IMG/VR virus record: IMGVR_UViG_3300033802_000250
Length of the DNA stretch: 64,000 bases
From: a virus
Lineage: Duplodnaviria; Caudoviricetes
Reading direction: 5' to 3' (one strand)
Position numbers and translations under genes: made by a program. The notes beneath the pieces are model-generated. The model saw only the letters and a list, made by a program, of their open reading frames with translations. It searched no databases and was not told the DNA's origin. Position 1 is the first letter of the stretch; each line of letters starts with the position of its first letter. This document shows, piece after piece, positions 1 through 43,100 of the stretch.

Positions 1-1
1 G

Positions 2-3000
2 ACGGTCATGGGCCGGAGTATTGACGATCTGATCCGCAACTACGACCGGTTGACGACGCAGATCGGCAATCTGCGCACAGGTGGTATCAATCTGCATGAG
101 GTTATCGAAATCGCAAACTCGGTCGGGTACGATCTTGGCGACGTTCAGCTTCAATTCACGCAAGCGGCCAAATTGCTCGAAAGCGCACGGGCTCAACTGC
201 CAGATGTCATCGAGGAAATGTTTGTCGCGGGGTTCCTGCATCCTGAACTGCGAAGCCGTCGGGCCGAGAAACTGATCGAGGCCGCCGGGCTCCCGGAAGC
301 ACAAGGATTGCATCTTGCTTCAACGGACGTAGATACGCATCTTGAAGTGCTTCGCGTGTTCTTCAACCGTCTGAACGAAAACCCGGAGTTCCAAAACTAC
401 CAGCCGTACAATCTGCTCCGTACCGGCGACATCGTTCTGCATGACATCGGATTACACAAGAACCTGCCGCTTGGCGCATACCGTGTGGAAAGCGTAGGGC
501 CAAACTTCATCAATCTGACGGCTTACAACTTCACCGCACCGGATGGCAAGCCGTTCGAGTTCCAAGTCCGTGCAGAAAATCCGCTGGATTTGAACCGCAA
601 GTTTCTGACCCATTTTCAGTTCTTGGGCGAAGGTTCCAATCCGAGCGATCAAGGACATATCCAGAACATGATTCGCGAGTTCGAGATGGACTTGGCGCGG
701 CGGTATATGCAACGAGCATCTCGGAGCGCATTTAACTTCGATCTTCAAGCGATGGAGCTTGGGCTTTTGGAACAGGGGTTGATCGCGCCGGATCAACACC
801 CGCTGGCCGTGGCCGAAGCGCGACGGCGTGCTATGACCGGGATCGAATCTGCTGTCGATCAAGTTCTTGTAGATAACACAGCTTTGTTCGGCAGGCCGGA
901 CTTTGATACCCTGCGCACGCTCGATATTACGCCGTCAAAGCGTGCGGCGTTTAACCAAATTCGCGACTTCTTCGACAGCGAGGAAGGCCGGGCTCGTCAA
1001 AGCTTCCTGCATGATGTCCGAGCATTGCAACGTACCGGCGTCATTACGGAAAGCTCGGCGAGAGAGCTTATCCGCCAAATGAACGCCTCCATCATCGAAG
1101 AAGGGCGACGCCGTGGCCGAAAGCTTTCGGTGCGCGGCATCGTCAGCGCGGGTGTAGCGCCGGTCACATTCGGTGACATGGCCGGGGAAAACATCATCCT
1201 TGACATGCGAAGTCCTGCACAGCTTCGCCGGAGCCTGTTCAGTATCGCGCAAGATCTGATGCCCGAAGCAGAAGGAATCTTCGACGCACCATATATGACG
1301 GAAAGCAATCTCAAATCGACAGCGATGAATGAGTTGCTGTTTCCGTTTCTGCGCGAACGCGGGCTGATTGAGTATGAGGATGATATCACGCTGGCTGAAG
1401 CCATGCGCCAACTGCAATCACGGCCTATCGTTCCGATGAGTGATGAGGGACAACCGTTGGGTGTGCTTCAGCAAGTTGAGGAGTTCGACTGGTTCGGCTA
1501 CCGCCAGAACGACCCCGAGTTTGTCGGCTTCATCAGACAGAAGCACGAGGAGTTGCTCGGCGAAATCAAGAACGGCATGACCGAGATGCAACGGATGCGA
1601 TTCGATGCTTATCACGATACTGTCCGTGCGTTGCAGGAAGCGGGTATGTACGATCCAAACCTGAAGATTACGCCGGTCATCGACGCTTCCCAACTGGATA
1701 TCAAGACGCTGAGCTTCAACAACTACAGCGGGCTCCGCCAACTGCGCGTCGATCAACTGCTTGACCTTCTGCCGCGTTTCAACAAGGATATCAACGAGCA
1801 AGAGATGATGCGGCGGTCGATCTTCCAAGAGTTGTTCCGGCGAGCGACAGAAGGAAAACCGAACTCGATTGAAGGATTGCTGTTTGAGAACGCAATCGAG
1901 CCCGACCGCATCGCGGCGGCGGAAGCGCTCGGGTGGATCGAGAGGATTCCAGAGGAGCAACTTACCCGCGTTCGTGAACGTCTTGGACGGTTTGATACGT
2001 TGCTTGGTGCTGTTGACCGAGTGGACAGCGAATACGGCGAATGGGATCCAACCAAATATCGTCGAGAGATCATGGAAGGTTTGTCGGACATCGAACTGGC
2101 AACCGGCTATCGCCAGAGCCGCGACTTCGCCAACATGTATCTTGGCGTTTACAGCGACTATTCGCATTGGCGGCTGAAGGATGTTCCACAGGCCGAGATA
2201 GCCAAATTACTCCGCAGAGATTATACTGAATATAGTGGAGCAAGTCTGGTTGCCGGGTTCCTGCAACAGTGGGCTGACGAAGGATTCCAAGGCCAAAGCC
2301 CAATGGCGACAAAGCCGCTTCAGCGGCGCGTCATTGATCCGCGCCGGGCAACAGTAGAGGATTTGGAACAGGCCGGAATGTCCAAGTCTGAAGCAGTTTC
2401 GCACCTGCGGGACATGGTGCGGGCAACGTACGAAGCAAGCGAGGAAGCGAAGCGCGAGGCGTGGATGAAAGCCCCTGTCATTTATGAGACGATGGAGGAT
2501 ACGATGGGCCGCCTGCGCCCGGACGATGAGATCACAAATGCGATCAATCGTGGCAAAGAGCGAGTTCGTCAGACCATCGACCGGATAACGGAAGGCATCG
2601 ACATGGATCGCGTTGGTCGCGCGGCCAAGTGGATCGCCGGAATTGGGATCGCCGCGTTTGCGCTCAGACAATTTGCCAACGCCAGCGGGCCGCTGAAATT
2701 CGATCATCGCCCGCAGGGTCACGGTGTCGAAGGTATCGCATCGACGGATTTGAACGATGACATCCGGGAACCGGGACTTCAGGCGGGCAACAATCCGTCG
2801 GCATCGGGTAAAGCGTATGTCACGGCTGGACAAGGTCGGGGTTATACCATCCGAGCCCGGGCGCGTGACAAACGTAACATTGACCACAATGAGATCACGA
2901 GCCAACTGGAGAGCGAAATGGGAGCGGTCAACATCAACGTGCGTGATGATCGACAAGCTATGGATCGCCGCTGGTTGGAGCAACAGTTCGACACATACAT

Positions 3001-12060: not shown

Positions 12061-13202
12061 TGGACGAGTTTCTGATCCGACACAAATTCCATACGCTCGA
12101 TAAAACCATCGAGGCGAACAAGGCCGCCGCAGACCAGCACCTTGCTCAACATGACTCGGACATCGCCAGCCTCGATCAGCGTGTGGATACGCTGGAAGGC
12201 AAGGAAACAGAAAGCTCCGGCGCAATCAATACGCTTCGTCAGCAGGTAACAGATCTGCAAAAGATGCTTGCTGATGTGACGCACGAGTTGAACAAGACGA
12301 AGCTCATCAATCTGAAACAGGATATCGTCATCCGAACGCTTCATAACATGCAGGCGTTCGATGCTTACGATATGTTCGCCGACACGTTCGCAGATGCGAC
12401 CCACATCGACATGGAGAACAGCATCCGGGCAGAATGGATGCCGGATTACCAAGCGGTCGGCAAAACCCGCCGGTCGGTTGTCGAGCTTCAGCAACTTTCG
12501 GCTCCAACCAACTTCCTGATTGCGAAGAACCAAACGAGCGACGAAGCTATTGCGCAAAGTTTCGTCATTGATAAGACCAAACAGGTTGACAAGGTGTCCA
12601 TTGTCGTCAGCAGGTTCAACGACAATACGACACAGCCGCTTATCGTCAGCATACGAGCCACGATTGACGGCCCGGATTTGACGAGCCGCGATATTACGGC
12701 AAACGAAGCGATAGGCGGATTTGTGGACGTGGAACTACCGGATTACATGCTGGACGCCGGGCATGTGTACTATCTTGTCTTGCGTACCAATGACTCTTAC
12801 GGCTACAGAATTGGCATGGATACGGTGGACAAATATCTCGGCGGCACCTCATTCAGTCTGTTCAACAATGTCTGGACGGACAATAACCACGACATCGCCT
12901 TCAAAATCTGGTGTTTTCCGTCGGAGGACGAAAACAACGCAACGATCCTCAGCGTTCCGAAAACACTGGCAACGACGCCGAAAACAATTGTATTCGAGCG
13001 CGAAGAAACTCTGGAACCCGGGAGCGGGATCAACTACTTCGTATCACGCGACGGCGGCCTGAACTGGAAAATTCTCCAGCCGGGCATCGTAACGAATCTG
13101 GACGACCTGCCGCCCGGCAACAAGCTTGTGCTGAAGGCGTATATTTTGGGCTCCTCCCGGATCGAAGCGTGGGGCTATGTGGTAACAAGGAGTGACGTAT
13201 AA
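12060..13202 (+). CDS. Virion structural protein (coiled coil + split chassis domain with inserted beta-sandwich)
   Basis: Heptad N-terminus; FADTFADATHID...insert...YFVSRDGGLNW; translationally coupled (TAATG). Confidence 0.7.
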   Translation: MDEFLIRHKFHTLDKTIEANKAAADQHLAQHDSDIASLDQRVDTLEGKETESSGAINTLRQQVTDLQKMLADVTHELNKTKLINLKQDIVIRTLHNMQAFDAYDMFADTFADATHIDMENSIRAEWMPDYQAVGKTRRSVVELQQLSAPTNFLIAKNQTSDEAIAQSFVIDKTKQVDKVSIVVSRFNDNTTQPLIVSIRATIDGPDLTSRDITANEAIGGFVDVELPDYMLDAGHVYYLVLRTNDSYGYRIGMDTVDKYLGGTSFSLFNNVWTDNNHDIAFKIWCFPSEDENNATILSVPKTLATTPKTIVFEREETLEPGSGINYFVSRDGGLNWKILQPGIVTNLDDLPPGNKLVLKAYILGSSRIEAWGYVVTRSDV

Positions 13203-16927: not shown

Positions 16928-19689
16928 CGCAACGCGCCAGACTGGATCAGCTTAAACGAAGCCGAAACAATCTGAACTACCGTACGTTCCTTGAACAGTT
17001 CGAGGAATTTGAACGTGAGGCGAAGCATCTCCGAAAGCCGGTTGCGACTTTCGGGGATCTTCCCTATGTCGGCAACAAACATGGCGACGAATGCCTCGTT
17101 TTGGATACCGGTGTGAAATACTTTTGGGATGCAAATATCCAGAACTGGCTTCCTCTGCTCGGAAAGGGGTATGACGTTCCGAGCGGCGTTATCAAACGTT
17201 ACCGGGGGAAATACATCGCCAGAGGCGGCGAGACAGAGGTTATCCTCAGTCACCGCTACGATGTGGGCATGAACACGCTGGATGTCTACATCAATGGCTT
17301 GCTTCAGGAGGCTGATGTTGACTACCGGGAAATCGACGAGATCACGATTGAATTTACAACGCCGCTGGAAACCGGCATGATCGTGACCTACATGATGCCT
17401 TACGTGGTCGGCAATGCCAACGAAGATGCCGACATTCGGCGACGCCTGCTTCAAATCGAACATAACCATTATCAACTGATGATGGTGAACTACTACCAAG
17501 GCAAACCGGTGAACTCACAGGCATTGTTCTTCGATGGTTTTCTCAATACGAACTATGTCGATTACATCAAAACCACGAAGAACATCGAGTACGACAACAT
17601 CCGGCGGACGATGCGCGTTGCGACCAATACAATCTCCAAGTTCCAAGAGGTTTTTGACTCCGATAGTCAAATTGATCTAACTGTGTCCAATCTGCGCCTC
17701 TTGAACTCGGAAATCACGCTCCCGGTATCGCAGGAGTTCTCTGTTGCCTTTGAAGATGATTTTTCTACGCCGAATAAACTAGCGTTGGAGGCAACAACAG
17801 CTTATTGGGATCCCGAACTGCAACAATTGGCTGTTGACCCGTATTACTCCGGCGGCAATCATTATCAGTTGGGCGATTTCATGGGTACAACAGGCGGTGT
17901 GGAGCGAAGCGGAGTATATTGGGAACAAGCTCCATGTTATTCCGTTGCGCCCGGCAAAAATCACATGTTCGCTGTTCATGGAGTGGATGTAACTCTCGTT
18001 CCAATCAACCGTCCATTTCGTAACACGGATGGAGGCAGTATGTGGGTGCCTGATGTTTCATCAGAGAATATGTCTGGTGCATCCCAACATAACTCAACAC
18101 ATACATGGGGTGCGTACTACTCCAATTCTGCAATCAGAACATTGGTATACGTACCCGAAACCGATAAACTTTACTTCCTTCAACAAGATAGCGAAGGTGG
18201 TGGACGATATAATCAAAAAATACGCTCTTTTTCTACGGTAACATCCAGTTTCACTATCTCAACCGTGCAATCGCGTTGGTATAATAATAATAGGCGATGT
18301 GCCGTATGGGGAACTCAACAAGACCTTGGATGGCCCGCAGGAATGCCAAACACGACGGGCGGCTCGGGGAAAACTGATGTTATTCACAGCTTAGGAGCAA
18401 CTCAAACCCATCTGCTGATTCGTGTCGAGGATACCATCTATTTCGTCAATCCGGTGACATGGTCTGTAGAAAAAGTGCTGGACTGGAGTTCTGCCGAAAT
18501 CAAACCGTCCCGATTCCTGAACAACTCGATGCAATTCGCCGCCGACAACCGGTTTCTGTACTTCCCGTGGTGGGGTGTGTACAAGGAGCATAACGGATAC
18601 TTCGTCGAGGTATTTGACATCGAAGACGGTCGATTCATCGACAAGTATTGGATTACGGAGACGTACCCCACAACGACGGCAATGCACTATGATTTCTTGC
18701 GAAACCGCATGATTCTCGGTTTGTGGGGTGGTAACTGGTACAGTCTGGTTGAAAAAGGCGTTGCCGGAGATTTTAGCTCCAATGGAAGCTTCGCCGGATT
18801 CATGTTGTTTGATCCTCCTGCGACCGGCTTCTCGTTGGCACAGTCGATTCCGCTAACAACCAATCTGTCTGAAGTGGAATACAAACTGAGTGCCACCCAC
18901 GTCGAAAACGGCGGCGTTGTCGAATACTTCATTCGATTCAACGGAGCCGCATGGCAGAGGATTGATCTGGATCGGGAGTATAAATGGATCAATCCGAAAA
19001 AGACGGGTGAGGCGACCATCGAGCTTCGTGTGGCGCTAAAAAACAACGTCGGCACCAGTACATCGCCGATTGTGACGGACTGGAAACTGGACATCAAGCA
19101 ATACCTGAATGAAGGCATTTATGTGTCCAAAGAACAAACGCTCCAGATCAGTAGCGTCAGCAGTGGCAAGATGGTTCTCAATCAGGATGCGCCGAACGAA
19201 ACGTCGATCCAATGGACGATCCAACTGGCCCCCGATGCACCAGAAGTGCCGGTTTCCGAAGACGGCGTGTTCTCGATTAGCGACGGATTGGGTACGGCCT
19301 ACGCGACGATACGGGCCCGCATGGCAACCAACAATACCTTGCTGTCGCCTGTTGTTCGGGACTTTACGCTTCAGATGCATTACGTTGAAGCGGGACGATT
19401 GGAATCCACTGTCTACAATCAGATTTACGACATCGAATACGGAACGATGTGGGTTACGAATACCGCGTCCAATGATTACATTGTTCCGTACATGTCGCGT
19501 GATGGCGGACAAACGTGGGTCGAAGGCGTGCGAGAAGCCAGCGTCAAACTGCCCGACGGTAGTTTCGAGAGCCAATATCGGTTTACGTTTACGGGCGACG
19601 AGCAAATTCGCAACCAAGCCAAAGTGGCCTTTGATATTCGTGGAGCGACCGAGATTGTGCAATACGGCGTCTCGATCAATCCGCTGTGA
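16924..19689 (+). CDS. Tail appendage / receptor-binding protein with three nested chassis domains around a low-GC beta-rich insert
   Basis: VATFGDLP...GD...V fibre motif, a VYING module, three FxDxF openers and three closing halves. Confidence 0.75.
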   Translation: MTQRARLDQLKRSRNNLNYRTFLEQFEEFEREAKHLRKPVATFGDLPYVGNKHGDECLVLDTGVKYFWDANIQNWLPLLGKGYDVPSGVIKRYRGKYIARGGETEVILSHRYDVGMNTLDVYINGLLQEADVDYREIDEITIEFTTPLETGMIVTYMMPYVVGNANEDADIRRRLLQIEHNHYQLMMVNYYQGKPVNSQALFFDGFLNTNYVDYIKTTKNIEYDNIRRTMRVATNTISKFQEVFDSDSQIDLTVSNLRLLNSEITLPVSQEFSVAFEDDFSTPNKLALEATTAYWDPELQQLAVDPYYSGGNHYQLGDFMGTTGGVERSGVYWEQAPCYSVAPGKNHMFAVHGVDVTLVPINRPFRNTDGGSMWVPDVSSENMSGASQHNSTHTWGAYYSNSAIRTLVYVPETDKLYFLQQDSEGGGRYNQKIRSFSTVTSSFTISTVQSRWYNNNRRCAVWGTQQDLGWPAGMPNTTGGSGKTDVIHSLGATQTHLLIRVEDTIYFVNPVTWSVEKVLDWSSAEIKPSRFLNNSMQFAADNRFLYFPWWGVYKEHNGYFVEVFDIEDGRFIDKYWITETYPTTTAMHYDFLRNRMILGLWGGNWYSLVEKGVAGDFSSNGSFAGFMLFDPPATGFSLAQSIPLTTNLSEVEYKLSATHVENGGVVEYFIRFNGAAWQRIDLDREYKWINPKKTGEATIELRVALKNNVGTSTSPIVTDWKLDIKQYLNEGIYVSKEQTLQISSVSSGKMVLNQDAPNETSIQWTIQLAPDAPEVPVSEDGVFSISDGLGTAYATIRARMATNNTLLSPVVRDFTLQMHYVEAGRLESTVYNQIYDIEYGTMWVTNTASNDYIVPYMSRDGGQTWVEGVREASVKLPDGSFESQYRFTFTGDEQIRNQAKVAFDIRGATEIVQYGVSINPL

Positions 19690-26123: not shown

Positions 26124-29100
26124 ATGGCAACTCGCTATTTCGACGTGACCGTCTCTGGTGACGCCAGCTACGTTGGCGAGCGCTTCTGGAGCGGCGAATC
26201 CATCAACTCGCTGTGGTATTTGTTCAACTACAACAGCGACAACCGCGCGACATGGGGGCTCGATGCCAACGGATGGTTGCAATACCGGAGTGCGTTTGGA
26301 ACCTACGCAGGCCGCTACAATCCCGACGACATCAACTTGGGCGATACATACTTTGAAGTTGATCTGCAACCCGCCGGATCCGGGAACTATGAAGTTGGGT
26401 TTTTCATGCGGTATATCGACCGCTTTTCGTTTTACTACCTGACGTTCAATGGCGGTTACGTGAATTGGGGTACGCGGAACATCCGGTTGTACAAAGTCAT
26501 TGGCACCCAACATATCATGGTCGCCGATGCCGAGCATCCGGTGTTTAACACCTCGACGGTTTACAAATTCAGGTGCGAATTGACGGACGCAAACGTCAAA
26601 ATCTACCTCAACAATTCGCTGATTATCAACTGGACGGATACGAGCGGTAGTCCGTATCGTCAAGGCGCATTCGGGCCGTGGGTCAGAGGACAGGAGTTCG
26701 CGAAGTGGAGAGGTTTCCAAGCCAAAACAAACTCGCCGGTCACGTTGTCCACAGTTCTCAAAGATAACAATGTCACAAACGCCTTCTACGATGCGGCTTC
26801 AGCAAAGCTGATCTCGATGCAATCCGTCTCCCAAATCCTGCAACCCATACTGGATGCCTTTCTGAGTAATGTGAACTACGAATCGTTCACATGGAAGTCT
26901 TTTCGTCTGTCATCGTCCGAACCTCGCGTCCATGTGATCTTTGACCGGACGGAAGGCGCGAATGTTACCTCAGATCCGGCATCCAAAATTTATGCTTATC
27001 AGCAATTGCCCACTTCGCCGCCGCTGGCTCCAACAAATTTGGTCGGCCAAGCGCTCGGGCTGAACAGCATCAAGCTGACGTGGGAACATGCGGATGACAG
27101 CGAAGACGGATTCCATATCTATGACGATCAAGGCAACCTCATCGCAACGGTTGCCGAAGACGTGCTGGAGTACACGGAAACCGGACTTGCCGAAAGCACG
27201 ACGTACAAGCGGGTTGTTGTTGCCTTCAATGCCGCAGGTGAGAGCGCGGCATCCAACATGGTAACTATAACAACCGCAAGTACAATTCCGATCAAGCCGA
27301 CAAATTTCCAAGGTACGCCGATCTCCGACCGATCCATCCTGTGGACGTGGAATGACAATGCCTTCAATGAGACGGCATATGAACTCATCACATGGGATGA
27401 GCTTGGCAATATCATCGTTCTGGTTAACGATTTGCCAAAGGGTACATCGTCGTATCTGGAGACGGGATTGTCGCCATCCACAACGTATGTGCGCGGCGTG
27501 CGGGCGAGAAACTCGGCGGGTCATTCCGAACCGTCCAACCCGTTTGAAGTCACGACAATGGACGAACTTCCGGCTCCGCCGATGAATGCGCCGGTGAACT
27601 TCTACGGCATTGGGGTGTCCGACACAACCATCTACTGGTTCTGGAAGGACATCAACCATGACGAAGAAGGCTTCGAGCTTTACGACCAGCACGACAATCT
27701 GATCGCAACGATCCCGGCCAATACTGAGCAATACATTGAAACTGGCCTGTACTCGCTGAACGTCTATCAGCGGAAAATTCGGGCGTTCAACCGGGGTGGC
27801 AAAGGGCCGTTCACGCCGCTGGCGACGGCCATAACGCTATCTGATGGGCGAGATCAGACCGGCAAGCCTCTGCCGCCGATGGATCTGCGGGCTGAAGTGC
27901 TGGACACCACCAGCGTCAGGTTGACGTGGGTGTACGAGGAGGACGAACACTTCCCGGCGGTCGGCTTCAAGATTTTCTTCGGCGACGGCGCATTTGCGGC
28001 GGCGGTGCCGAAAGATCTGCGTGAACACACGATCAGCACATTGCTTCCGAACACCACGTACCATATGTACATCGTTGCTTACAACGACAACGGCGATAGC
28101 CTGCGAAGCAATACGGTCGAGTTCACGACGCCGCACGTCATTCCGAATATCCCGGATCCAATTGATCCGAGCGATCTGGAGGATCCGTTCTATGGCATTT
28201 CGTACGACCACGAGAAGGAGGGGATGCCGAAGATTTCGGCTTTCCAATCCGGCGTCGGCGACGGCCTTGACCTTGTTGTGCGAAATATTCAATCTCCGGC
28301 TCCCAATCTGGAGGTATTCCGATATGAGGTCTACATCACAGGCGAGTATCAGGAGACGATTGAGGGCGTCACTTACAATCGTATTTGGGAATCCGCCCGG
28401 TCGGTGGGCCAGTTGCAAGAAGTCGTTGCGGGCGCGGTGTTGAAATTTACCGACCGGATTCCATCGCCGCTGTTTGATTTGATGTGGCAAGAGATCAACG
28501 CAAAAACACCGATCAGCAACTACAAGCTGATTCTGACCTCGACGAATCCGAACGTCGAAATCACGCTGGAGCGGGAAGTCACGAATTTCTTCCCGGAGGA
28601 CAGCACATTCATCGAACTGCCGATGCAGGCCCGCATCATCAACGAAACGCAAACGGCATGGTATCCGTCCATCCATTCCGGGTACTACTATTTGAACCAG
28701 CAAGAATGGTTCCTGTACGTTGACGACCGCGTACGCCCGCGCGATGGTGATATCGACGAGATGTACGTGATGAAGTTCCCGTACATCATCAAAGCATTCG
28801 GCGCTCGCCATTACGATGCACAAGACTTTCATTTCGTCGATACAACCCGTGCAGACTTCCTGCAAGGCGAAGTCGGTGAAGGCATCACGCTGGATAAGGA
28901 ATACGGCTCGATCTGTCTGAAGGATGACGCCGCTGAAGGAGTCTTTACGTCGCGGATCTTCCGGTTCGGGCGGCCTGTGACGGACTGGTATCCGATTGAA
29001 GTCATCTATGACGGAGAAGCCGCTTCCGGCGGCGCACGCTTCGAGGTCGAAGTGGGTGCGAGCGACTACCTCGGCAATGTGGAAACTTGGTATCCGCAGA

Positions 29101-32100
29101 CGGTAGGCGAACCAATCAATCTGCCGGAAACCGCCGACAAAATCCGCTACCGCATTAAACTGTATGAAGGGTATCGAAAAGATACCGAAGTACCGGATTA
29201 CTACTTCGACAGTTTTCTGCTCGGCCAAGGCACCCGCACCCGCACGATTGTTGTCGGCAATGCTGTGATGATCGACAATATCGCAACCAGCGCCGACGGA
29301 ATGTACATCACGGCACCGATCCATTTGGGAAAAAACGTGGATTCGCTCGGCACGCTTCGTGTTACGCTGGACATTCCGGGAACCTCGGACGTGAAATTCT
29401 TTACGGTGACGTTCGATGATCCGAACCATAATTACCGAACGCCGACAGCGGAAAGCCCGTGGATTCCGGCTTCTTTTGTGTACGACCCGGACACGAAGGA
29501 CTATACGATAGGAATTTCGTCCGCCATCAAGGAGTATCTCGCCATTATCATTCAGCTTACGCGCGGCATCGCTCCGGGGCCGACGTTTACCATTACGCCG
29601 TCCAACTTCGATCCGAGCCGGGCAAAAAACCTGATCGTTGCCGGAGACAGCATTCGACTGAGCAATCTGACGCAGGAAGGTATGTACACGTCGCAACCGG
29701 TTTATGTAGGAGACGCCGCCAACTTGGCATTCAGTGTCCAGATTGAACCGGATAATGCCGAATATGTTGTTCAAAGCGTCTTTGGCGCAACGGCACAGGA
29801 TGTTATGAATGCTTCCATGATCGAATCATCGTGGAGAAATGGCATTCCGTCTGCGCCGTTGCAAGGCTGGATGATGTACCGCATCAAGCTCAAACCGTCT
29901 TTGGTGGATTGTACATCCATACACTTCATGAAAGACACGTACGCAGACTTCTCCAGTCATTCCGGGCGCACGAACATGAGCATCAACACGGATGGCTCGA
30001 TTTCGGTTATCGACAAGTCGATGAAGGCTACCTATACGTCGGAGGAAATCCCGGTTGGAATCCTCGACAAAGTCTTGAGCATCGTACTGAATGGGAATGG
30101 AGACTGGAAGAACGTCAAATTCTTCATACAGTACAAAATCAATGGGGTATGGACTCACGAACATTCCTACGAGATTAAGGAGACTTATCTCAATGGAGAG
30201 GCGTCGGCTGTGCTACCATCCTTGTTGAATGTTAATGGCACAACCCACATTAGATACCGTATTGAAATTGAGCCGTCTGTACCGGCGCACTATAATTATG
30301 TCAGCGTGAACTACAACAAGTTCAAAGACGGCATCAACAACAATATGGATATCTATCCGATTACGGCCCACGGCAATCCGAACTACTATTCGGGCGTTAA
30401 CGTTCATGGACATTCGATGAACGAAAAAGAGCGATGGCCGTATCCCGATCAAGGCACATACGAAACGCCGTGGTTTGAAGTCACCAGTGCGGAAGTTTCC
30501 CGTCCCGACGTGTGGATCGGAGGCTTGAACTTTGAGGTAGACTGGGATCTGTTTATCCAACAGGCTCCTTACGTTCGGGTTGAGATTCAGCTTGAAAACC
30601 AAGATGGAGTGCAAAGCCAGTGGTTTGTGATGGAACCGCCTGTTCATCACCATATCGGCGGCAACTATCAGCCCAAGGGATACATGATGGACTTGACGAG
30701 TTTTCCGAATGCTCGTAAGGCGAGAATCCGCGTGCATATCCGCACAGGTACAAAACAACTCTACGAGGTTAATGGGCCTGTCCTTATCAACTACGGATCG
30801 GATGTCATGAAGTTCAACCTCAACATGTACTACGGCGGTCGTGGTACGACGAGAATTGACCGCATTTCGGTCAACACCTCAAAGTGTACGCCGGTGACGC
30901 CGATTCTGAAAAGCATGGCGGTTGTATCCAATGCCTACGTTGGGCCGAAGGTGTCAAATATCCATGTGAATCCGGTGTTGTACGAATTGACTCGGGTGGT
31001 TCCGAAAATCTTGGAGGTGCGCCTTGGCGGCCATATCAAAGAAGGCGTCGCGCTCGAAACTTATGCGGTGCCAATGGTCGGCGAACTGATTATGGATCAG
31101 AAGGAATATCCCATCACGGATAAAATCGTGGAGGATATTGTGTACGACTATCTGGCGTCGCGCGGCGTCGAGTTCAACGACAACTTCGCCTTCACGGATT
31201 ACCATCTCCAGATTGACCCGGTGTATCCGGTTCAGTTGCGAACCAATCCGCGAGGAACAGAGCGTGTATTCGCCCGGGCGACACAGCGGGCCGGAGATGT
31301 ACTGTATCAAAACATCCGCATCTACTTCGACAAGGACGATCAAAGCGTTGTGTTGAAGCCAATTCCTCAGCATGGTAGCCCGATCTGCATCAAGAACGCC
31401 GCTGGAGTACAATTGCGGCAGGTACATTTCCGAGATGATCTTGGGCACCCAACGCTGACGAATATGGAGGAGCCGCTGGTTGAACATCAGCGCTACCTGT
31501 TCCTGCAATACACCGGCATCGACCCGAGAACGTTGGAAGTATATGCGCCGAACGGTGAAGGGTGGGCGCAGGTTGAAGATGTGCAATTGATCGAGAACCG
31601 AGTGGTTTTGCCGAGCTATTTCCCGTCCGGCACCAAGTTCCGCGTGTTGTACAAACTGAAGGATTCCTTCTATGTGCATTACAACTACGCACCGCTGGAG
31701 GATTACTGCCAGATTAAAGTGCATACGTCGTTCGATCCGAACAACGATGCGACCCGGTATCTGGACATCAAATACGAGGTCAACAAGGAGACGGCGTATT
31801 ATCTGGCGAAGGAAGTAGACCTAAACCCGCTTCGGAGCAAGATCAACAGCGGCTTTATCTACCTGACCGATACGGTTTATCCGCCGTTTACGCTCGATGT
31901 GCAGTTCAATCCGAACACGTTGTACAAGGGCTCGGAGGACAAGGTCATCATCAACGCCATCATTCTCGACGAGTTCGGCAACCCGGTTGTCGGAGAAAAA
32001 GCCGATTTCAGTTGCAACGTGGGAAGCATCCAAGTGCTGAAGCGCATCAGCGACCAGAACGGTATGGTAACGGCGCTGTATATCGCGCCGAAATCAACAA

Positions 32101-32609
32101 AGCTCTCGAAGGCAACGATCAATATCAGCGTTATCTCCCGCGACGTTTCCAAGCAAATCTCAAAGACCGTGGAGGTTTTCTTCGTAGAACCATACTCGGT
32201 CAACAAAATCGCCATTTTGCCGGAAAAGAATATGGTCGAGCTTGGAGATGTTGTACAATTGAAAGTAAAGGTGATGGGCGCAAACAACGAGCCGCTGGCG
32301 GGCCGCAACGTGCAGATGTACACCGATCAAGGCGTTCTTGAACCGGAGATCGGAACGACGGATGAGCGCGGAGAATTGCAGGTTCAGTACACCTATCAGC
32401 CGAGCGACCGGCGCAATATTGTCGTCTTGTCGCAGGATACGGTGGTCGAACCGGTAGCGGGCCTGAACTTCACAGCGGAGTTCGAGTTTGTGAACCGTCG
32501 CCTTGAAACAGACTCCACAGACGGTTACGTCTTGATTGAGGCTGAAACGTATGACAACAATCTTCAGCCGATTCGGGAGCAAATCCTGTTGGGTGTAAGT
32601 GGGGTGTAG
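26124..32609 (+). CDS. Giant baseplate-associated adhesin-like protein: lectin-like N-domain, 4x fibronectin III, nested chassis domains, C-terminal Ig (Big_1-like) domains
   Basis: Fn3 repeats PLAPTNL...IKLTW...YTETGLAESTTY..VVAFNAAGES (about 27010-28130). C-terminal ILDEFGNPV...SDQNG and GANNEPLAGRNV...TDERG. Confidence 0.8.
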   Translation: MATRYFDVTVSGDASYVGERFWSGESINSLWYLFNYNSDNRATWGLDANGWLQYRSAFGTYAGRYNPDDINLGDTYFEVDLQPAGSGNYEVGFFMRYIDRFSFYYLTFNGGYVNWGTRNIRLYKVIGTQHIMVADAEHPVFNTSTVYKFRCELTDANVKIYLNNSLIINWTDTSGSPYRQGAFGPWVRGQEFAKWRGFQAKTNSPVTLSTVLKDNNVTNAFYDAASAKLISMQSVSQILQPILDAFLSNVNYESFTWKSFRLSSSEPRVHVIFDRTEGANVTSDPASKIYAYQQLPTSPPLAPTNLVGQALGLNSIKLTWEHADDSEDGFHIYDDQGNLIATVAEDVLEYTETGLAESTTYKRVVVAFNAAGESAASNMVTITTASTIPIKPTNFQGTPISDRSILWTWNDNAFNETAYELITWDELGNIIVLVNDLPKGTSSYLETGLSPSTTYVRGVRARNSAGHSEPSNPFEVTTMDELPAPPMNAPVNFYGIGVSDTTIYWFWKDINHDEEGFELYDQHDNLIATIPANTEQYIETGLYSLNVYQRKIRAFNRGGKGPFTPLATAITLSDGRDQTGKPLPPMDLRAEVLDTTSVRLTWVYEEDEHFPAVGFKIFFGDGAFAAAVPKDLREHTISTLLPNTTYHMYIVAYNDNGDSLRSNTVEFTTPHVIPNIPDPIDPSDLEDPFYGISYDHEKEGMPKISAFQSGVGDGLDLVVRNIQSPAPNLEVFRYEVYITGEYQETIEGVTYNRIWESARSVGQLQEVVAGAVLKFTDRIPSPLFDLMWQEINAKTPISNYKLILTSTNPNVEITLEREVTNFFPEDSTFIELPMQARIINETQTAWYPSIHSGYYYLNQQEWFLYVDDRVRPRDGDIDEMYVMKFPYIIKAFGARHYDAQDFHFVDTTRADFLQGEVGEGITLDKEYGSICLKDDAAEGVFTSRIFRFGRPVTDWYPIEVIYDGEAASGGARFEVEVGASDYLGNVETWYPQTVGEPINLPETADKIRYRIKLYEGYRKDTEVPDYYFDSFLLGQGTRTRTIVVGNAVMIDNIATSADGMYITAPIHLGKNVDSLGTLRVTLDIPGTSDVKFFTVTFDDPNHNYRTPTAESPWIPASFVYDPDTKDYTIGISSAIKEYLAIIIQLTRGIAPGPTFTITPSNFDPSRAKNLIVAGDSIRLSNLTQEGMYTSQPVYVGDAANLAFSVQIEPDNAEYVVQSVFGATAQDVMNASMIESSWRNGIPSAPLQGWMMYRIKLKPSLVDCTSIHFMKDTYADFSSHSGRTNMSINTDGSISVIDKSMKATYTSEEIPVGILDKVLSIVLNGNGDWKNVKFFIQYKINGVWTHEHSYEIKETYLNGEASAVLPSLLNVNGTTHIRYRIEIEPSVPAHYNYVSVNYNKFKDGINNNMDIYPITAHGNPNYYSGVNVHGHSMNEKERWPYPDQGTYETPWFEVTSAEVSRPDVWIGGLNFEVDWDLFIQQAPYVRVEIQLENQDGVQSQWFVMEPPVHHHIGGNYQPKGYMMDLTSFPNARKARIRVHIRTGTKQLYEVNGPVLINYGSDVMKFNLNMYYGGRGTTRIDRISVNTSKCTPVTPILKSMAVVSNAYVGPKVSNIHVNPVLYELTRVVPKILEVRLGGHIKEGVALETYAVPMVGELIMDQKEYPITDKIVEDIVYDYLASRGVEFNDNFAFTDYHLQIDPVYPVQLRTNPRGTERVFARATQRAGDVLYQNIRIYFDKDDQSVVLKPIPQHGSPICIKNAAGVQLRQVHFRDDLGHPTLTNMEEPLVEHQRYLFLQYTGIDPRTLEVYAPNGEGWAQVEDVQLIENRVVLPSYFPSGTKFRVLYKLKDSFYVHYNYAPLEDYCQIKVHTSFDPNNDATRYLDIKYEVNKETAYYLAKEVDLNPLRSKINSGFIYLTDTVYPPFTLDVQFNPNTLYKGSEDKVIINAIILDEFGNPVVGEKADFSCNVGSIQVLKRISDQNGMVTALYIAPKSTKLSKATINISVISRDVSKQISKTVEVFFVEPYSVNKIAILPEKNMVELGDVVQLKVKVMGANNEPLAGRNVQMYTDQGVLEPEIGTTDERGELQVQYTYQPSDRRNIVVLSQDTVVEPVAGLNFTAEFEFVNRRLETDSTDGYVLIEAETYDNNLQPIREQILLGVSGV

Positions 32610-32611
32610 CC

Positions 32612-35600
32612 ATGTTTCTGCCAACAAAAGCCCACATCAAAGAAATTACGGAAGGCCAATACCGAATCCGGCTCGGAAACCGCGTCCCAAAGGACGCGGT
32701 CAACCTGGCCTATGCACACATCCCGGCTGTCAACAGCCGGGAGAATGTGCTTATAACCGATCTTTCCAATACAATCATGGAAAATACGCGGAACGCCCAA
32801 ATCGGCGACATCTTCATGCACCCGGACAATTCCCTCCTGCTGGCGACAGAGGATGGCCGCATGGAACTGCCGACGACGGATGTTCTGATCACGAACATTT
32901 TTCAGGGTGAAACGCCGCTATATTATGCCCAAGTGCTGACGTATTGGCATTACGACAAGATGGGGCCGGACGAGTACGGGATGTATCAGGGCACCGGCAT
33001 TACGATTGTAGACCGGTTTGGCAAACCGATTGATCGCCCGTACCGGGTGCAATTGATTGAGGAGCCGAACCATAAGAACCTGTACAAAATCATCGTGTTC
33101 ACCTCGTTCAAAGACAGCGAGAGCGATACATACAGCGTCGTGTACAACGCCGTCAACGTTTTGCCTGACGGGCGCACAGAAACATTCGCCGGATACCGGG
33201 AATCGCTGAACCTGCACAGGGCGTTCACCCGGCTTGACGATATGGTGAAGATTCTCGATCAGGTGCGTCGCCGGGACAATTCGCCAACGTACTATCAGGC
33301 CAACGGCACGCATCCGGCTTACAGCAAATTCTACGTGCCGACGCCGCCGATTGACGACACCCGAAAACCGGAGTTCTTCCGGTATCAGGTTGGTCTTGAG
33401 ATCGAGATCAAAGGCGAAAAGCACATCTTCACGACGCCGTGGTATTCGGACAACGTCTTCAATATCAACTCGTTGACTGTCGAAGAACGCAACGAATACG
33501 TGAACGGCAACAAACTCCTCACGTCCACAACGGCAGAGGAGATCATGAAATACTTCGCGGACAAGGATTTCTTCTATGATGTCCGGGCCAAGAAGAAATA
33601 CTTTGTCATTTCTGACAACGATGTGGTGAAAGTCTTTACCCGACTGGACGGTTCATCGCCGGTGTACGCGACGACAAACGTCTCCGGTGTTCAGCGGATT
33701 CGGATCCCGATGAACGCCCGCAGGAGTCAATCCCCTATCGAGGAAACCGGAAAGCTGAAGTTTCGCATCCGGCCTCTCAAGGGCGTTCCGAACACGGTTG
33801 CGAACATCAGCTTCGTTATTGACGCCAGCAATTCGATTAAGCGATACGACTCCGACAAAAGCCAGCGGTCGATCATTATCCGGGATATCGTAAACTCGGC
33901 CCGCAACTTCCATCCCGAATTTGCCGTAAACGGATTTGCCTATAACTATACGGTGAATCCGTTCCAAGAAGAAATGATCGGAGATTCCGAAGCGTTAATT
34001 CAGAAGTTCTTGAAGGATGTGGAGGACTCCGACATCACATACCCGTTTCCGGCCATCGACGCGGCCATCGAGAAGCTGGATAAGATCCCGGAGAAATTCA
34101 ATCGAGTCTCCACCGAGATAACGAACTTGAAATTCTTGGTGCTGGTAACAGACGGGCGGTACGAATCGTTCGGGGCGCTTGAGGAGAAGATCATCGAGGC
34201 CAAAAACAAAAAGATCAGCCTGTGTGTTGTGACTTTCAGCAACTACGAGCAGATCCGGGAAGTTTGCGAGCGCAATCAGACGCTCGCCGTTGACGCGCTG
34301 TCGCCGCGCATCGGAACGTTCCTGCGTTACTTCTTCTTTGATCTCGCAGGGCTTCAGGAATCCTTCGACCTTGGCAACACGATCAACTTCACGATCAGCC
34401 CGGACGAAGGCGACAAGGAAGTAGCGGTGATGGAGTATGACACCTTCAGCATTCCGCAAAAATACCTGAACGACAAATACCGGTACGGAATCGAAGTGCA
34501 ACTGGAAGCGCACGCGGCGATCTCCATCTACATCAAGGACAAGCCTGTTGACCGGATTCTTGCCACCTACAACAGCGGCAACATCATTCCGATCAACTAC
34601 ATGGATGTGGAGAACGTCTACCATGTGATCGCGACTTCAAAGTATTACGCCTACAAGTTCAATCACACGTATGCGCTTCGATTGAACGACAACCAGCAAA
34701 TTCAGGTGTTGCCGCCGCGCGAAATAGAGTCCCGGTATAGTTGGTATCTCCGCATCAAAAACGGTCGGTTTGAACGGAATGTTGTTGAGGATGATAAGGT
34801 CGTTACCTACTGCTATTCCATCCCGGAATACTACCGCCAAGGGTTCATTCCTCAACTCGGTGTGCCGTATGTGCAGGTGCAAAAGGAAAAGCCGCGCATC
34901 CTGAATGACAGCCAAATCAAAGTGATGTACACACCGTTGTATATCGAGTTCGACGGCGAGAAAGTTCTGAATGCAACGGTGCGCGTTAACGGCAAACCCA
35001 TCAACATCAGGTCGTGGAGTACCTTCGACGGCGTGTTTGAGCTTGATGGCAAAATCACGCAGAACGACAATATCGAAGTGTACTATCAGTACGAGGAAGA
35101 AGCGTATGTGTACCGGGGGTATTATGACGAACAATCCGGTCGGTTCTGGAGCCTTGATCTGAATCCGACGGCGGGCCACTATGTTACCATCCGGGACAAA
35201 TACGACGGCACGGTCAAAGACTTGCCGAGCTTCTGGTTGATTAACGAAACCATCTACCTGTATCTGCGGCCAACGATGAAGATGGTGCCAACAGATAACG
35301 GATACGAGATTCAGGGTATCCAGAAAGCAACGCTGTTTCATGCCTTCGAGAAGGTCGATGAACCGAACGTATTGCTGATTGCCAAGATTCACGTCCGGCC
35401 AAACTCCAACCGAGAGAGCATTCGATTCCTCGATACCCGGATGCGCGGCGGCGGGCTGAAGCCGGAGATCAACGAAGCAATCATGCGTGAGTTCGAGAGC
35501 GAATCGTTCTTCTATTGGGATATCGGCAGTTGGGATGGAAAGCCGTATTCGGAAAACGCCGTGGCCGTATTCCGCATCACGCGGAAGGTACTGAAAGAGT

Positions 35601-38369: not shown

Positions 38370-40142
38370 ATGAACGAACGCTATGTACGTTTTGATCGTC
38401 GGCAGGATAACGCGAACCAGATTATTTCTGCCGACGACGTAAACGCCCTTCAGCGAGTCTCGGAGGCATCCCAAAAGGAATTATTCAAGGGACAAGACCG
38501 AGACTTTCTTGACAGAGCGCTGTTTGTGCTAGAGCATCATCGCACCCTGAACGGTTTGTGGGTCGATTTGTTCGAGAATACAACCAAGATTGACTTGGCG
38601 AAAACGAGCGGCCTCGTCTTTTCCGAAGCAGAACAGGCAATTGTTTTCCCGGACGGAAGCACCGATGCGGATGGCTATCTCTATTCTGAGACGTATGTCA
38701 ATCCGAACTCCAGCCTGATGAAGAAGGTTATGGTGATCGCCGATTACGATGTGCCGGAAGGCACCGATATCATCATCTCCGTCAGCAACAACGGCGTGGA
38801 CTTCTTCGAGCCTCCGCTCGGCAACAGCGAGCCGTTCGAGATTCCGACGGACGGCCAAAAGCTGAAATTGAGAGCCCGATTTACACGAACGGTGTTTGAC
38901 AAAACACCCCGTCTCAACTCGTGGGCGGTGCTTTTTCGCGACCCGGAGCTTGAAGTAATCAAAATGCCGGACGGCACCCGAATCATCATCGGAGATCCGA
39001 ATAACCAAGATCCGAACGATCAGCCGCTCAGCATCAAGCACTCGCAGTTGCTCGAAATCGGCCCGGACGATCACCACCCGCAAGAACACAGCCACGATGG
39101 CACGGACGGTTCCGGGCTTGTCAGCCACAAACACCTCTTGGATATCGGCGAAGACGACCACCACCCGAAAGATCACCAACACGGTCAGGACGGCGTAAGT
39201 CCGGTCAACTTGGATACGGATGTTATCGGCACGCTGTCAGCCGAACACCTGTCGCATCAAGTTTGGCTCGGACGACCCGGCACCACCGGGTTGTACTTTG
39301 ATCCGAAGATTGGCGACCGGCTTGTGTATGTCAAGACGCCGGACGATGAGACATACCTGTTCTATGACTTTAGCAATGATGGTCGTCTGGATCACACCAT
39401 CACGATCATGCGCGGCGTCGCTTCATGGGAAACGCTCGTCTACGGGCCGTACACAAACGCGCAAGGCCAGACCGAGATCAAGTTCCTCGGCACCGAGAAG
39501 GAAATGTTCGACGCAACCGACCAGATGATTCTCGACGAGATCGCCAAAATCACGGCTCCTGCTCCGCCGGAAGGCGTCAACGTTTTGGATACCGGTGCAG
39601 GCGGTACATTGGTTGTGTCGTGGCTCAAGAACAAAGAGTTCGACGTGGTGGGTTACAACGTCTACATTTCTGTCAACGGCGGTATGACATGGACGCGGCA
39701 CAACAACACGGGATACATCAGCGACCTGACCTATACGGTGACGGGGCTGGTCGATGGCAATACATACTACTTCAAGGTAACGGCGGTGGACAATACCGGA
39801 TACGAGTCGCTGGATTCGGCGGTGGTATTCGGCGTGCCGACGTTAATCGACACCATTGCTCCCGATGCTCCGACGGGTCTGAATGCGGTTGGCGGCGGCG
39901 GATCCATCATGCTGTCGTGGGCGGCAAACACCGAGCCCGACTTGGCAAAGTACAATGTCTATCGTTCGCCGTCCGGCTTGACGGGGTCGTTCCTGAAGAT
40001 CGCCACGCTCGACGCATCGACAACCACCTATACGGACTCCGGCGGCATCGCAACGGGCTCCGTGTACTACTATTACGTAACGGCGGTAGACACCAACGGC
40101 AACGAAAGCGTGCCGTCCGGTGCGGTCAATGCGATAGCATAG
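38370..40142 (+). CDS. Virion protein: uninterrupted chassis domain, His-rich repeats, 2x Fn3
   Basis: WVDLFENTTKID...TPRLNSWAVLF; two DDHHP repeats; YYFKVTAVDNTGYES and YYYVTAVDTNGNES. Confidence 0.75.
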   Translation: MNERYVRFDRRQDNANQIISADDVNALQRVSEASQKELFKGQDRDFLDRALFVLEHHRTLNGLWVDLFENTTKIDLAKTSGLVFSEAEQAIVFPDGSTDADGYLYSETYVNPNSSLMKKVMVIADYDVPEGTDIIISVSNNGVDFFEPPLGNSEPFEIPTDGQKLKLRARFTRTVFDKTPRLNSWAVLFRDPELEVIKMPDGTRIIIGDPNNQDPNDQPLSIKHSQLLEIGPDDHHPQEHSHDGTDGSGLVSHKHLLDIGEDDHHPKDHQHGQDGVSPVNLDTDVIGTLSAEHLSHQVWLGRPGTTGLYFDPKIGDRLVYVKTPDDETYLFYDFSNDGRLDHTITIMRGVASWETLVYGPYTNAQGQTEIKFLGTEKEMFDATDQMILDEIAKITAPAPPEGVNVLDTGAGGTLVVSWLKNKEFDVVGYNVYISVNGGMTWTRHNNTGYISDLTYTVTGLVDGNTYYFKVTAVDNTGYESLDSAVVFGVPTLIDTIAPDAPTGLNAVGGGGSIMLSWAANTEPDLAKYNVYRSPSGLTGSFLKIATLDASTTTYTDSGGIATGSVYYYYVTAVDTNGNESVPSGAVNAIA

Positions 40143-40154
40143 GAGGTGTGAAGG

Positions 40155-43100
40155 ATGTCGCAAATTACGCAAAACGCAGACGGCACGTACACAAAGTCGT
40201 ACAGTGACGCCGAAATCGCGCTGATCAAGCAACTGCATACGGAAATGTTGAACCGCCAAGATGCGGACAATCAACTGTTCCTGAAGATCACCAGTTTGGA
40301 GAACCGGGTTGACGTACTGGAAGGTGAGCGGTTCAGTTTGTCTGATCTGCAAAACGCCATCAACGCCAACACGATGAAGATCGAGGCGAATGAGAGGCGG
40401 ATCAAACAGCTTGAGGACGCCGTCATCGTCGATGCGTACAGCAAGACGCAGATGGATGCCTACATGATTCCGTGGAAGGTCGAGGAGATCAATCGCGTAT
40501 TCGATACGCCGACAAACGAGATGTTCGATGAAGCCAATCTGACGGACATCAAGGTCGGCTACAAGCATTTCCTGAACGCTGACATCAATGAGCCCTACGG
40601 CTTCCATGTGTTGCCGAATACGATGCGCCGCTATACGATTATCGCCTACACGCCGACGCCGACCCGGGTGACGTTCGGTATCTTCTATGCCGACCGTTGC
40701 GTGGTGTACCTGAACGGCGTCGAAAAGGCGACGTATCAGGAAGATGGCGGCAACTTCGGCAAGACGCAGAAGGTTCTGCAACTGGACTTGCAGACCGGCT
40801 GGAATACAATCCAGTTCCTTCTGGCGAACCAAACGCAAGAGGGCGGCCTTGTTGTCAATTCTGACTTGGTCAGCAAAGTCTCCGTCCTGTCTTCCGTGGC
40901 ACCGATGGCTGGCCGATTTACGGGCGACCAGATTCAGGCGGGCACGCTGGATGAGCGTCATTTCAGCGAGAACATGGACATTACGTTGAAGAAGATCCAT
41001 GCGACCACGACCAGTGAACCTGCCGGTGTATTCGGCGACCCGGATCGCATGGGGGCTATTCAGATCGGCGACGGCGTGATTTCCAAGTCTAAAGACGAAC
41101 CGTTTGTCGTCGGTGGCGATCTGAAGGTTGACGGGTACATCCGGGATAAGGACGGCAACATTCTGGACGGCGGCGGAGGCCGGGGGCTCACCACCGCCGA
41201 CCGGGAGAAACTGGATTCCATCGAGTGGGGCGCAGAGGTCAACCAGAATGCATTCAGCTACGTGAAACTGGTCGATCTCCCGGCAACGGAAGAAAATCCG
41301 TTCCAGAACGTGATTAACGCCATCTTCAAGATGGATACGCTCCGTATTCGCGGCGATCTTGGCATCACCTTCGATATCGAGACTGTCATTGAAAACGGCG
41401 AGGAGCGCCAGCAGATGGTTATCAAGAACTCGCCGACCGAGTTCAAGGAGCATCTGTTCATCTCCGAAGCCGACCAAGACACGTTCTCTATTGATCCGTC
41501 CGAAGGCAAATTCCAGTTGGGCCGGGGCACCGTTCAAGTCTACATCGAAGGTATTCGCCAATCTTACGCGAACTTCTACGAAGTGGATGAATGGACGATT
41601 CGCTTGCGGGAGAAGGTGCCGGAAGGACTCAAGGTACTGGTCGTATGGCAAGAAGGAAGTCCACAGTTTGCCAAGGAAACCATCGTGTCGTTGGCGAATA
41701 TCCCGATTGCGTCCCGGACGCAGGACGGCCTGATGAGCCGATTCCATGTGGAAGACCTGTATGACCACAAACACAGCATCAGCGACCTGACCGACTTGAA
41801 GGTCTTTAAGGGGATCGAGATCGACGACGGTGAAACAAAGCACCGGATCGACGCGGACGGCCTGAACGATATCCGGCTTCGCGCCGGGGTTAATATCAAG
41901 CTGGAGCGGCTGAACGATGTCGTACGCATCTCCAGCCTCGGCCCGGAAATTACCGCCGGGCGCGGCATTCATGTCGGCGGCTCGCCGGAAACCGGATATC
42001 AAATCACCAACACGCAACGCCTCGAAGCAACCCGGGGGCTTGTGCTGGAGCATATCGAAGGCATCGACGTGCTGAAAGGCCCGGTCTTTGTCGAGGGTAA
42101 AGGCATCGACGTTCAGGTTATCGACGATGTTACTTATAAGATCCTGAACAATATGAGCCTGACCAGCCTCGGCGGCATTGAGGTGACGGGTAATGCCGAA
42201 GAAGGGTACATCATCAAGAACTCGATGCTCATCGAAGACGATCCCGAAGGCGGCATTGAAGTGTCCGGCGACCCGGTACGCGGCTACAGGATCACCAACC
42301 GGATGAACCTGACGGCTGATGGCATCATTGTCGAAGGCGATGCTCGTAAAGGATACCACCTGAAAAATGCGCTGGACATCCAAACCAACGGCGGTCTGCG
42401 TGTCATTGGCGATCCGGCATATGGTATCACCATCGAAAACATCATGAAGCTGATCGAGGCGGGTGGTATCGAGATCACCGGGAATCCGTCCGATGGATAC
42501 CGGATCAAAAACGCACTCAGCCTGCAAGCATCCGCCGATGGTTGCGTGGTTGTGACCGGATCTGCGGCGACCGGATATACGCTGACCGGGCGCTGGCCGT
42601 CGATTACGTCCGGCACCGGTATTGCGGTGGACAGCATGGGCGACGGTAAATACCTCGTCAAGAATACCGGGGTCACGTCGTACAACGGCCAGACTGGAGA
42701 GGTTACAGGCGTCGGCTCGCTAAACAAAGTCGCCGAAGGACGCGGCACCCGCGTCGTGCATCACGGTAACGGTGACTATGTCGTACACAACACCGGCGTC
42801 GTCGAACTGATTGACGATGGGATTGGCGGCGGCATTGATGTCCAAGACATGGGCAATCAGGTCTGGAAGATCAAAAACACCGGTATCATCAAGAACATCC
42901 AAGGCGAAGGAATTTCGGTCGTCACCAACAGCCAAGGTGAATCGACGATCTCGAACACCGGGGTTCGCAAAATCTTCTCCGGCCCGGGAATTTTCCTCAG
43001 CGGAAGCACCGGCGAAGTCACCATCACGAACACGGGCGTCCACCGGGTTATGCAAGGGCGCGGCATCATCGTTACGCAATCCGGCAATGATGTGACCATC

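Follow-up and report, generated by a model that had tools for sequence, protein, structure and literature searches.

The protein considered here has points of contact with several described systems. In the Bacillus phage 0305phi8-36, orfs 162–164 are regarded as excellent candidates for the host-recognition determinant (Hardies et al. 2007, PMC2147016), and the same paper notes only Fn3 and intimin domains, and no nest, in gp163, a protein detected in virions by mass spectrometry according to the note in its record. In the Staphylococcus phage 812, the tripod contains beta-sandwiches of the carbohydrate-binding module (CBM) types CBM16 and CBM61, which are proposed to bind the glycans of the cell wall, in a structure paper that describes neither domain boundaries nor nesting (PMC13433997). 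Recursive nesting is reported in Si3 of the cyanobacterial RNA polymerase beta' (RpoC2), where a survey of 2026 recognizes six levels of nested hybrid-motif domains (PMC13114784). The window analyzed here, a stretch of 64,000 nucleotides (nt) of the IMG/VR virus record IMGVR_UViG_3300033802_000250 (Duplodnaviria; Caudoviricetes), encodes an ortholog of gp163, referred to as P0001, of 2161 amino acids (aa), whose residues ~903–1640 are, as a whole, probably best explained as a recursive nest of domains in a virion protein of the gp163 type. It is probable that the chain first builds domains 1–4 and a tip, and then returns the last strand to domains 4, 3, 2, and 1, in this order.

All coordinates are positions in this window, which contains a structural module of the phage with all of its genes on the plus strand. 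Between a lectin-like domain at the N terminus of P0001 and immunoglobulin (Ig) domains of the Big_1/invasin type at its C terminus lie four Fn3 domains, a core, and the nest. Each repeated unit of the nest, or chassis, is treated here as a body, the jelly roll minus its last strand, together with a closer, the strand predicted to complete it, and the confidence of the AlphaFold2 (AF2) predictions is given as the predicted local distance difference test (pLDDT).

26124..32609, plus strand: gene of P0001, a 2161-aa virion protein, ortholog of 0305phi8-36 gp163 (from the list of open reading frames and the translation)
28761..28829 (aa 880–902), plus strand: outgoing stem strands, at the origin of the nest; AF2 strands E2-18 and E21-27, pLDDT ~80
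28830..29177 (aa 903–1018), plus strand: body 1, a jelly roll minus its last strand, ending in IRYRIKL; pLDDT ~90
29187..29573 (aa 1022–1150), plus strand: body 2, within the last hairpin of body 1, ending in YLAIIIQL
29574..29909 (aa 1151–1262), plus strand: body 3, inserted in body 2, ending in MMYRIKL; pLDDT 87–94 in the second model
29910..30287 (aa 1263–1388), plus strand: body 4, inserted in body 3, ending in IRYRIEI; covered by two independent AF2 models
30288..30443 (aa 1389–1440), plus strand: low-confidence linker from body 4 to the tip; pLDDT <50 in both models
30444..30836 (aa 1441–1571), plus strand: tip domain, or body 5, beta-rich and divergent; predicted strands, pLDDT 30–70
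30837..30884 (aa 1572–1587), plus strand: closer C4, TRIDRISVN, last strand of body 4; body-4 alignments end at aa 1583–1591
30885..30929 (aa 1588–1602), plus strand: closer C3, TPILKSMAVV, assigned to body 3 by comparison
30930..30983 (aa 1603–1620), plus strand: closer C2, GPKVSNIHVN, last strand of body 2; body-2 alignments end at aa 1616–1621
30984..31043 (aa 1621–1640), plus strand: closer C1, VPKILEVRL, last strand of body 1; body-1 alignments end at aa 1637–1641
31044..31103 (aa 1641–1660), plus strand: returning stem strand, leading back into the conserved core; E762-778, pLDDT 78–93

The arrangement was first proposed in a first-pass annotation made from the letters of the DNA, and all 15 of the 15 motifs that it quoted are present in the 2161-aa open reading frame at the places given, with the body starts at aa 911, 1058, 1185, 1302, and 1443, and the closers TRIDRISVN, TPILKSMAVV, GPKVSNIHVN, and VPKILEVRL at aa 1576–1634 (nt 30849–31025). 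The bodies were said to lack their usual final strand, P-x-L-x-x-I-x-V, and the pattern P-x-[ILVM]-x-x-h-x-h is in fact found in none of them, given that its four occurrences in the 2161 residues all fall in aa 1593–1650. Three matches to this pattern within 50 aa are reached in 26 of 2000 shuffles of the residues.

The comparison of aa 691–1700 with itself by BLASTP recovers no internal matches, and no similarity between one body and another. For the comparison of profiles, the family alignment was cut into units, each formed by a body and the closer assigned to it under the reverse order. Five pairs of these unit profiles (U1-U2, U1-U3, U1-U4, U2-U3, and U3-U4) align end to end in hhalign with a probability of 93–98%, with closer placed upon closer (97.9% for U2-U3). 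The fifth unit (aa 1389–1571) scores below 10% against U1–U4, with no paralogue detected by this approach, although it retains the G-T-Y-E-T and ARIRVHI hallmarks and contiguous closing strands of its own, with a weaker fifth closer, PVLINYG (aa 1551–1557), directly behind the tip body. The count of about five chassis bodies in the first-pass annotation is thus retained for four paralogous copies, and amended for the fifth, which is a divergent tip. As read from the profiles, aa 903–1640 of P0001 is a set of four chassis copies and a divergent tip domain.

Two AF2 models were produced, the first of aa 880–1660, from an alignment of 11 sequences, and the second of aa 1150–1606, from eight. The first model has a mean pLDDT of 75.6, with values of ~90 in bodies 1–3, ~65–88 in body 4, and 77–93 in the closers, and the terminal strand of the second model (E445-455, which is C3) reaches ~78–89. 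The return path (aa 1576–1657) is predicted to be a near-continuous beta-strand, in which some strands have 13–17 residues. Contiguous single jelly-roll domains superpose on these models in VIA-align over 105–134 residues, with a root-mean-square deviation (rmsd) of ~3 Å and Z 8–11.7. The matched templates include the ligand-binding domains (LBDs) of EphB2 and EphA4 (Eph LBD, Z 11.7), the MAM domain of meprin (Z ~10), the CBMs of GH146, GH86, GH101, and xylanase (Z ~8–9), and the CBM16 2zez_C (Z 8.8).

The model ranges covered by these templates are long. The range 21–24..758–762 corresponds to aa ~900–1641, that is, body 1 and VPKILEVRL, while 140–144..737–742 corresponds to aa ~1019–1621, or body 2 and GPKVSNIHVN (Eph LBD, MAM, and CBM templates), and 382–385..707–711 to aa ~1261–1590, or body 4 and TRIDRISVN. 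In the second model, the whole chain of the CBM16 2zez_C (1..143) lies on 116..436, with ends at 434–442 in the remaining rows, which again represents body 4 and C4. As a template of ~130 residues spans 300–740 residues of sequence, the distant segment must belong to the domain, and the ends of the aligned ranges step backwards, from aa ~1639 in body 1 to ~1619 in body 2 and ~1588 in body 4, which agrees with closure in reverse order. In bodies 1, 2, and 4, then, a host domain is interrupted by a complete guest, as it also is in the split matches of the unit profiles described below. Each guest, in turn, acts as a host, with closure in reverse order, for which the evidence is comparative in body 3, and confidence in the tip is low. 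The structural prediction that had been proposed for residues ~900–1640 therefore supports the return of the strands in reverse order directly in bodies 1, 2, and 4, by AF2 and VIA-align, and the comparison of homologs supports it in body 3 and in the scheme as a whole. The global searches with Foldseek of the PDB and BFVD recovered only multi-domain, CBM-bearing matches of low template modelling (TM) score, which indicate the class of the fold, rather than its topology.

A series of different depths is available among the homologs. In 12 proteins, including P0001 and gp163, the bodies were counted by unit hidden Markov models (HMMs), and the closers by reading the region that follows the bodies.

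P0006, P0010, and P0012: two bodies, two closers
gp163, P0007, and P0008: three bodies, three closers
P0001 to P0005: five bodies, five closers
P0009 (3041 aa): seven bodies, seven closers

The count of five closers is clearest in P0005, which has five regular chassis copies, the fifth being a regular contiguous chassis by HMM, whereas the motif has decayed in one or more of the innermost closers of P0001–P0004. The closers recur with a period of 15–19 aa. The deepest nest found is that of P0009, in which seven bodies are followed by seven closers in aa 1557–2550.

The innermost unit is contiguous in every protein, with the penultimate strand followed by a loop of ~7–15 residues and then the closer. 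This is the case of unit 2 in P0006, P0010, and P0012, and of unit 3 in gp163, P0007, and P0008, where the body leads into a closer with which C3 aligns. In P0007, for example, MKYRIRM and SPMIENIHI are separated by a loop of seven residues, whereas in P0001 the two strands are ~330 residues apart, with body 4, the tip, and C4 in between. Bodies 4 and 5 are missing from gp163, as are precisely the closers that correspond to them, and C4 is absent along with these bodies in gp163, P0007, and P0008. In P0001, by contrast with these contiguous units, the U1 HMM match is split between aa 903–1022 and aa 1614–1640 (HMM positions 110–136), and HMM positions 126–146 of U2 match aa 1600–1620. The depth of the nest is evolvable, and its changes appear to come about as whole innermost units, each with its closer, are acquired or lost.

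These data bear on a different arrangement, in which five complete domains would stand in tandem, like beads, and the closers would fold apart as a small beta-domain or a shaft of repeats. The regular spacing of the closers, which is strictly 17 aa in P0005, recalls the repeats of fiber shafts, and the absence of body repeats in BLASTP is also in its favor, but the single-domain templates require the body and its distant closer together, the number of closers equals that of the bodies at depths of 2, 3, 5, and 7, and the innermost units have the closer motif right behind the body, as their last strand. This arrangement is very unlikely, and the AF2 models likewise contradict both of the outcomes that would have told against the original proposal, that is, closers folding together as an independent domain, and bodies that are complete without them.

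The conservation of the protein follows the nest. The stems are well conserved, with 91% identity to P0002 in the outgoing stem, and 90% in the returning stem, the latter being 50–75% identical to P0003–P0005, while the linker has 54% identity with P0002 and 10–15% with P0003–P0005. The identities of the bodies and closers are as follows.

P0001 and P0002: bodies 1–5, 87, 78, 63, 61, and 60%; closers C1–C4, 75, 89, 33, and 56%
P0001 and P0003: bodies 1–5, 65, 35, 20, 29, and 21%; closers C1–C4, 70, 50, 20, and 25%

The conservation of the closers roughly mirrors that of the bodies, with high values in the two outer ones and low values in the two inner ones.

A number of points weigh against the reading of this region as a nest closed in reverse order. 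The gradient of the closers is noisy in relation to P0002, with C2 above C1 and C3 below C4. No single-domain alignment of body 3 with C3 is found among the VIA-align rows, and VIA-align reports no more than the two ends of each aligned range, from which strand-to-strand hydrogen bonds are not read. The similarity of the bodies to the CBM-like, or galactose-binding-like, class of jelly rolls, with moderate Z values, is one of fold rather than function. The AF2 alignments, of 11 and eight sequences, are also shallow, the linker and tip of the first model mostly have a pLDDT below 50, and the predicted template modelling score (pTM) is 0.43–0.49. The shallow alignments and the low scores would be expected if the prediction were an artefact, in which a shallow alignment of 8–11 sequences lays the contiguous units of the short homologs over the split units of the long ones, and the deep forms are in reality different, or partly disordered. 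The match of the counts, the co-deletion in gp163, and the gradients of conservation are, however, independent of AF2, and gp163, which was left out of the building of the unit HMMs, still matches unit 3 contiguously, with E=5.8e-43. An artefact of this kind is highly improbable.

A further difficulty is that the closers are alike, and the partner of each cannot be assigned from its sequence alone. The returning strands might instead close the bodies of a neighboring chain, in a true donor-strand exchange, or three-dimensional domain swap, which would interlock the arm. The near-interchangeable sequences of the closers are compatible with this exchange, as is the fact that tail fibers are usually trimers, the phage 812 tripod being trimeric (PMC13433997), and the AF2 models of the nest are of the monomer only. 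Even so, in the monomer model each of the bodies tested is already completed, with high confidence, from within its own chain, and the loops of 7–15 residues in the contiguous innermost units suit a hairpin within one chain, which makes an exchange between subunits quite unlikely.

Under the intrachain closure in reverse order, each domain is inserted in the final hairpin of its predecessor, between the penultimate strand (R-Y-R-I-x-L) and the last one (P-x-L-x-x-I-x-V). Adjoining domains would then be linked by two antiparallel crossings of the chain, and the closers would extend into connectors of two strands, formed with the linkers on the way out. The nest would, in this case, form a doubly tethered and fairly stiff stalk on a peripheral baseplate or fiber protein, rising from its conserved core, with both flanks of the chain anchored at the base, and would expose a fast-evolving tip to the Gram-positive wall, along with what may be several glycan-binding faces. 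The chances are about even that this picture, of antiparallel crossings and a doubly tethered stalk with its tip and glycan faces toward the wall, is correct. The first-pass annotation had gone further, and envisaged a telescoping arm, although nothing in the analysis supports sliding or extension. It is unlikely, in addition, that the nest is other than static, with the closers swapped between subunits to form an interlocked arm, or with tethered domains that hinge apart when the baseplate is triggered, the depth acting as a ruler. In the hinged case, for which the domains of the phage 812 tripod offer an analogue, the depth of the nest (2 to 7 in relatives) would be an evolvable ruler, matched to the thickness of the wall or capsule of the host.

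The likeliest role of the nest would be adhesion to cell-wall polysaccharides, because its fold class is the same as that of the CBM16/CBM61-type domains proposed as wall-glycan binders in phage 812. To judge from the gradient of divergence, the innermost unit is the putative specificity-bearing tip. The linker below it (aa 1389–1440, 30288–30443) has ~50 residues, many of them N, Y, H, or G, and is almost unconserved, and runs of Gly and Ser are found at the equivalent places in P0003 and P0004. This linker may serve the tip as a flexible hinge.

The protein as a whole belongs to a very small family. A protein identical to P0001 is encoded on a metagenome contig of 208,070 bp, and the phage of the window is a jumbo phage of the Bacillus type, of 208 kb. 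The orthology with gp163 is found in both the sequence and the gene neighborhood, given the full-length MAFFT alignment of the two proteins, the tblastn search with P0001, in which 0305phi8-36 ORF163 is the sole match among 50,697 phage records, and the gene order common to the two phages (gp162-like, phrog_21059; gp163-like; and a gp164-like gene bearing vWA). The search of the phage collection with the DNA, by megablast, gave no match. In PHROGs, P0001 is phrog_21285, “virion structural protein” (E=0), and in Pfam it has four fn3 domains (aa ~295–680), and Big_1 and Invasin_D3 (aa ~1928–2103), with nothing in Pfam for aa ~690–1920. Searched in full with phmmer, a library of 1.84 billion representatives yielded 10 proteins, and the profile of the contiguous units, compared with longer proteins, found the gp163-like family alone, with no chassis outside this lineage. 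Neither the contiguous chassis units of the short homologs nor the tip domain has a match in Pfam, to a CBM family or otherwise, and the family profile finds nothing at E<=1 among the PDB sequences. The N-terminal 230 residues of P0001 (aa 1–230, 26124–26820) have the look of a lectin fold of the LamG or 3-keto-disaccharide-hydrolase type, and PF06439 matches the homologs P0009 and P0010, and is below the threshold in P0001.

Some further features of the window were also recorded. The unit-1 HMM has weak matches in 48776–50767 (aa 323–393, independent E-value (iE) 2.7e-4) and in 13202–16927 (aa 453–528, iE 1.6e-3), which encode two other large structural proteins, and the 1241-aa one of the two also has a PA14 domain. 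Jelly rolls resembling the chassis may, on these matches, recur elsewhere in the virion. The comparison with two neighboring giant proteins by BLASTP gave only chance-level matches, and no similarity in sequence was detected between the neighboring 921-aa protein (16924–19689) and the P0001 nest. Long antisense reading frames lie opposite the structural genes, on the minus strand, at 27837–29774, 39843–42527, 6335–7960, and 13175–14545, with 645, 894, 541, and 456 aa, respectively. They are not genes, given that the usage of sense codons explains them. The codons TTA, CTA, and TCA, whose reverse complements are stops, occur only 0, 3, and 8 times in the 2162 codons of the P0001 gene, two of them flanking the 645-aa frame at 27837 and 29826, and their rarity marks the antisense frames as a by-product of codon usage.

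The depths of 2, 3, 5, and 7 offer a clean natural series of the lengthening of an arm by self-insertion into its last hairpin, which is useful for thinking about the evolution and the folding of deep nests. The ~740 residues of P0001 have probably escaped Pfam for want of a chassis model, and through the splitting of all the domains but the innermost one. Closing strands that are deferred and stacked in mirrored order provide a simple sequence signature, which could be used to flag nests in other unannotated giant phage proteins. In the poorly known jumbo-phage lineage of 0305phi8-36, the nest also indicates where a candidate host-recognition protein is likely to face the receptor, at the tip, its least conserved and innermost unit.

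Among the known systems, gp163 (ORF163) of 0305phi8-36, a protein of 2143 aa annotated as a tail fiber or virion structural protein, is the closest, sharing with P0001 the chassis domain, the insertion point, the Fn3 domains, and the intimin/Big_1 domains at the C terminus, although its nest is three deep, rather than five. The phage 812 tripod (the gp119 of the structure paper; PDB 9eui chain Q and 9euj chain G) is a protein of the baseplate periphery in a myophage of Gram-positive hosts, and is among the top structural matches of the nest (Z 11.4, 125 residues, rmsd 2.7 Å). This match spans residues 503..1152 of the chain, with only 125–131 residues aligned, which suggests that the jelly roll of the tripod is likewise built from distant segments. 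The unit HMMs recover only chance-level matches in the tripod reading frames, however, with no homology to the tripod family found in this comparison. In addition, the last two strands of the C-terminal domains of the tripod appear to be contiguous, its split point appears to be different from that of P0001, and its nested domains are of different folds, unlike those of the P0001 nest. In the NC_029080.1 record of phage 812, the tripod gene (30245–33702) is annotated as two reading frames that are not in phase, Gp122 (619 aa) and Gp123 (531 aa), while the tripod of the 2026 structure paper has 1152 aa, and the gp numbers of the record are offset by three, with gp117, gp118, and gp119 of the paper being Gp120, Gp121, and Gp122+123.

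In the chaperone–usher pili, the missing strand of the domain comes from another polypeptide, and drives polymerization. The likeness with P0001 lies in a beta-sandwich without its last strand that is completed from elsewhere, and is an analogy only, given that the monomer model closes itself. The comparison with donor-strand complementation in the first-pass annotation holds, then, as a metaphor, and gives way to recursive insertion into a beta-hairpin, with discontinuous domains in a single chain. The clearest published precedent of deep self-nesting is Si3, in which small paralogous beta domains are also inserted recursively, in an elongated arm. It differs in its fold, a sandwich-barrel hybrid motif, in being part of a cellular enzyme, with no adhesion role, and in that neither a uniform stack of closing strands nor variation in depth between close relatives is reported. 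Recursive insertion is, in this sense, already known, and the nest of P0001 represents no new principle of folding or assembly. What is new here is a nest that is deeper than the phage examples found, a uniform signature of closing strands, a lineage-restricted domain without a Pfam family, and a depth that varies between relatives.

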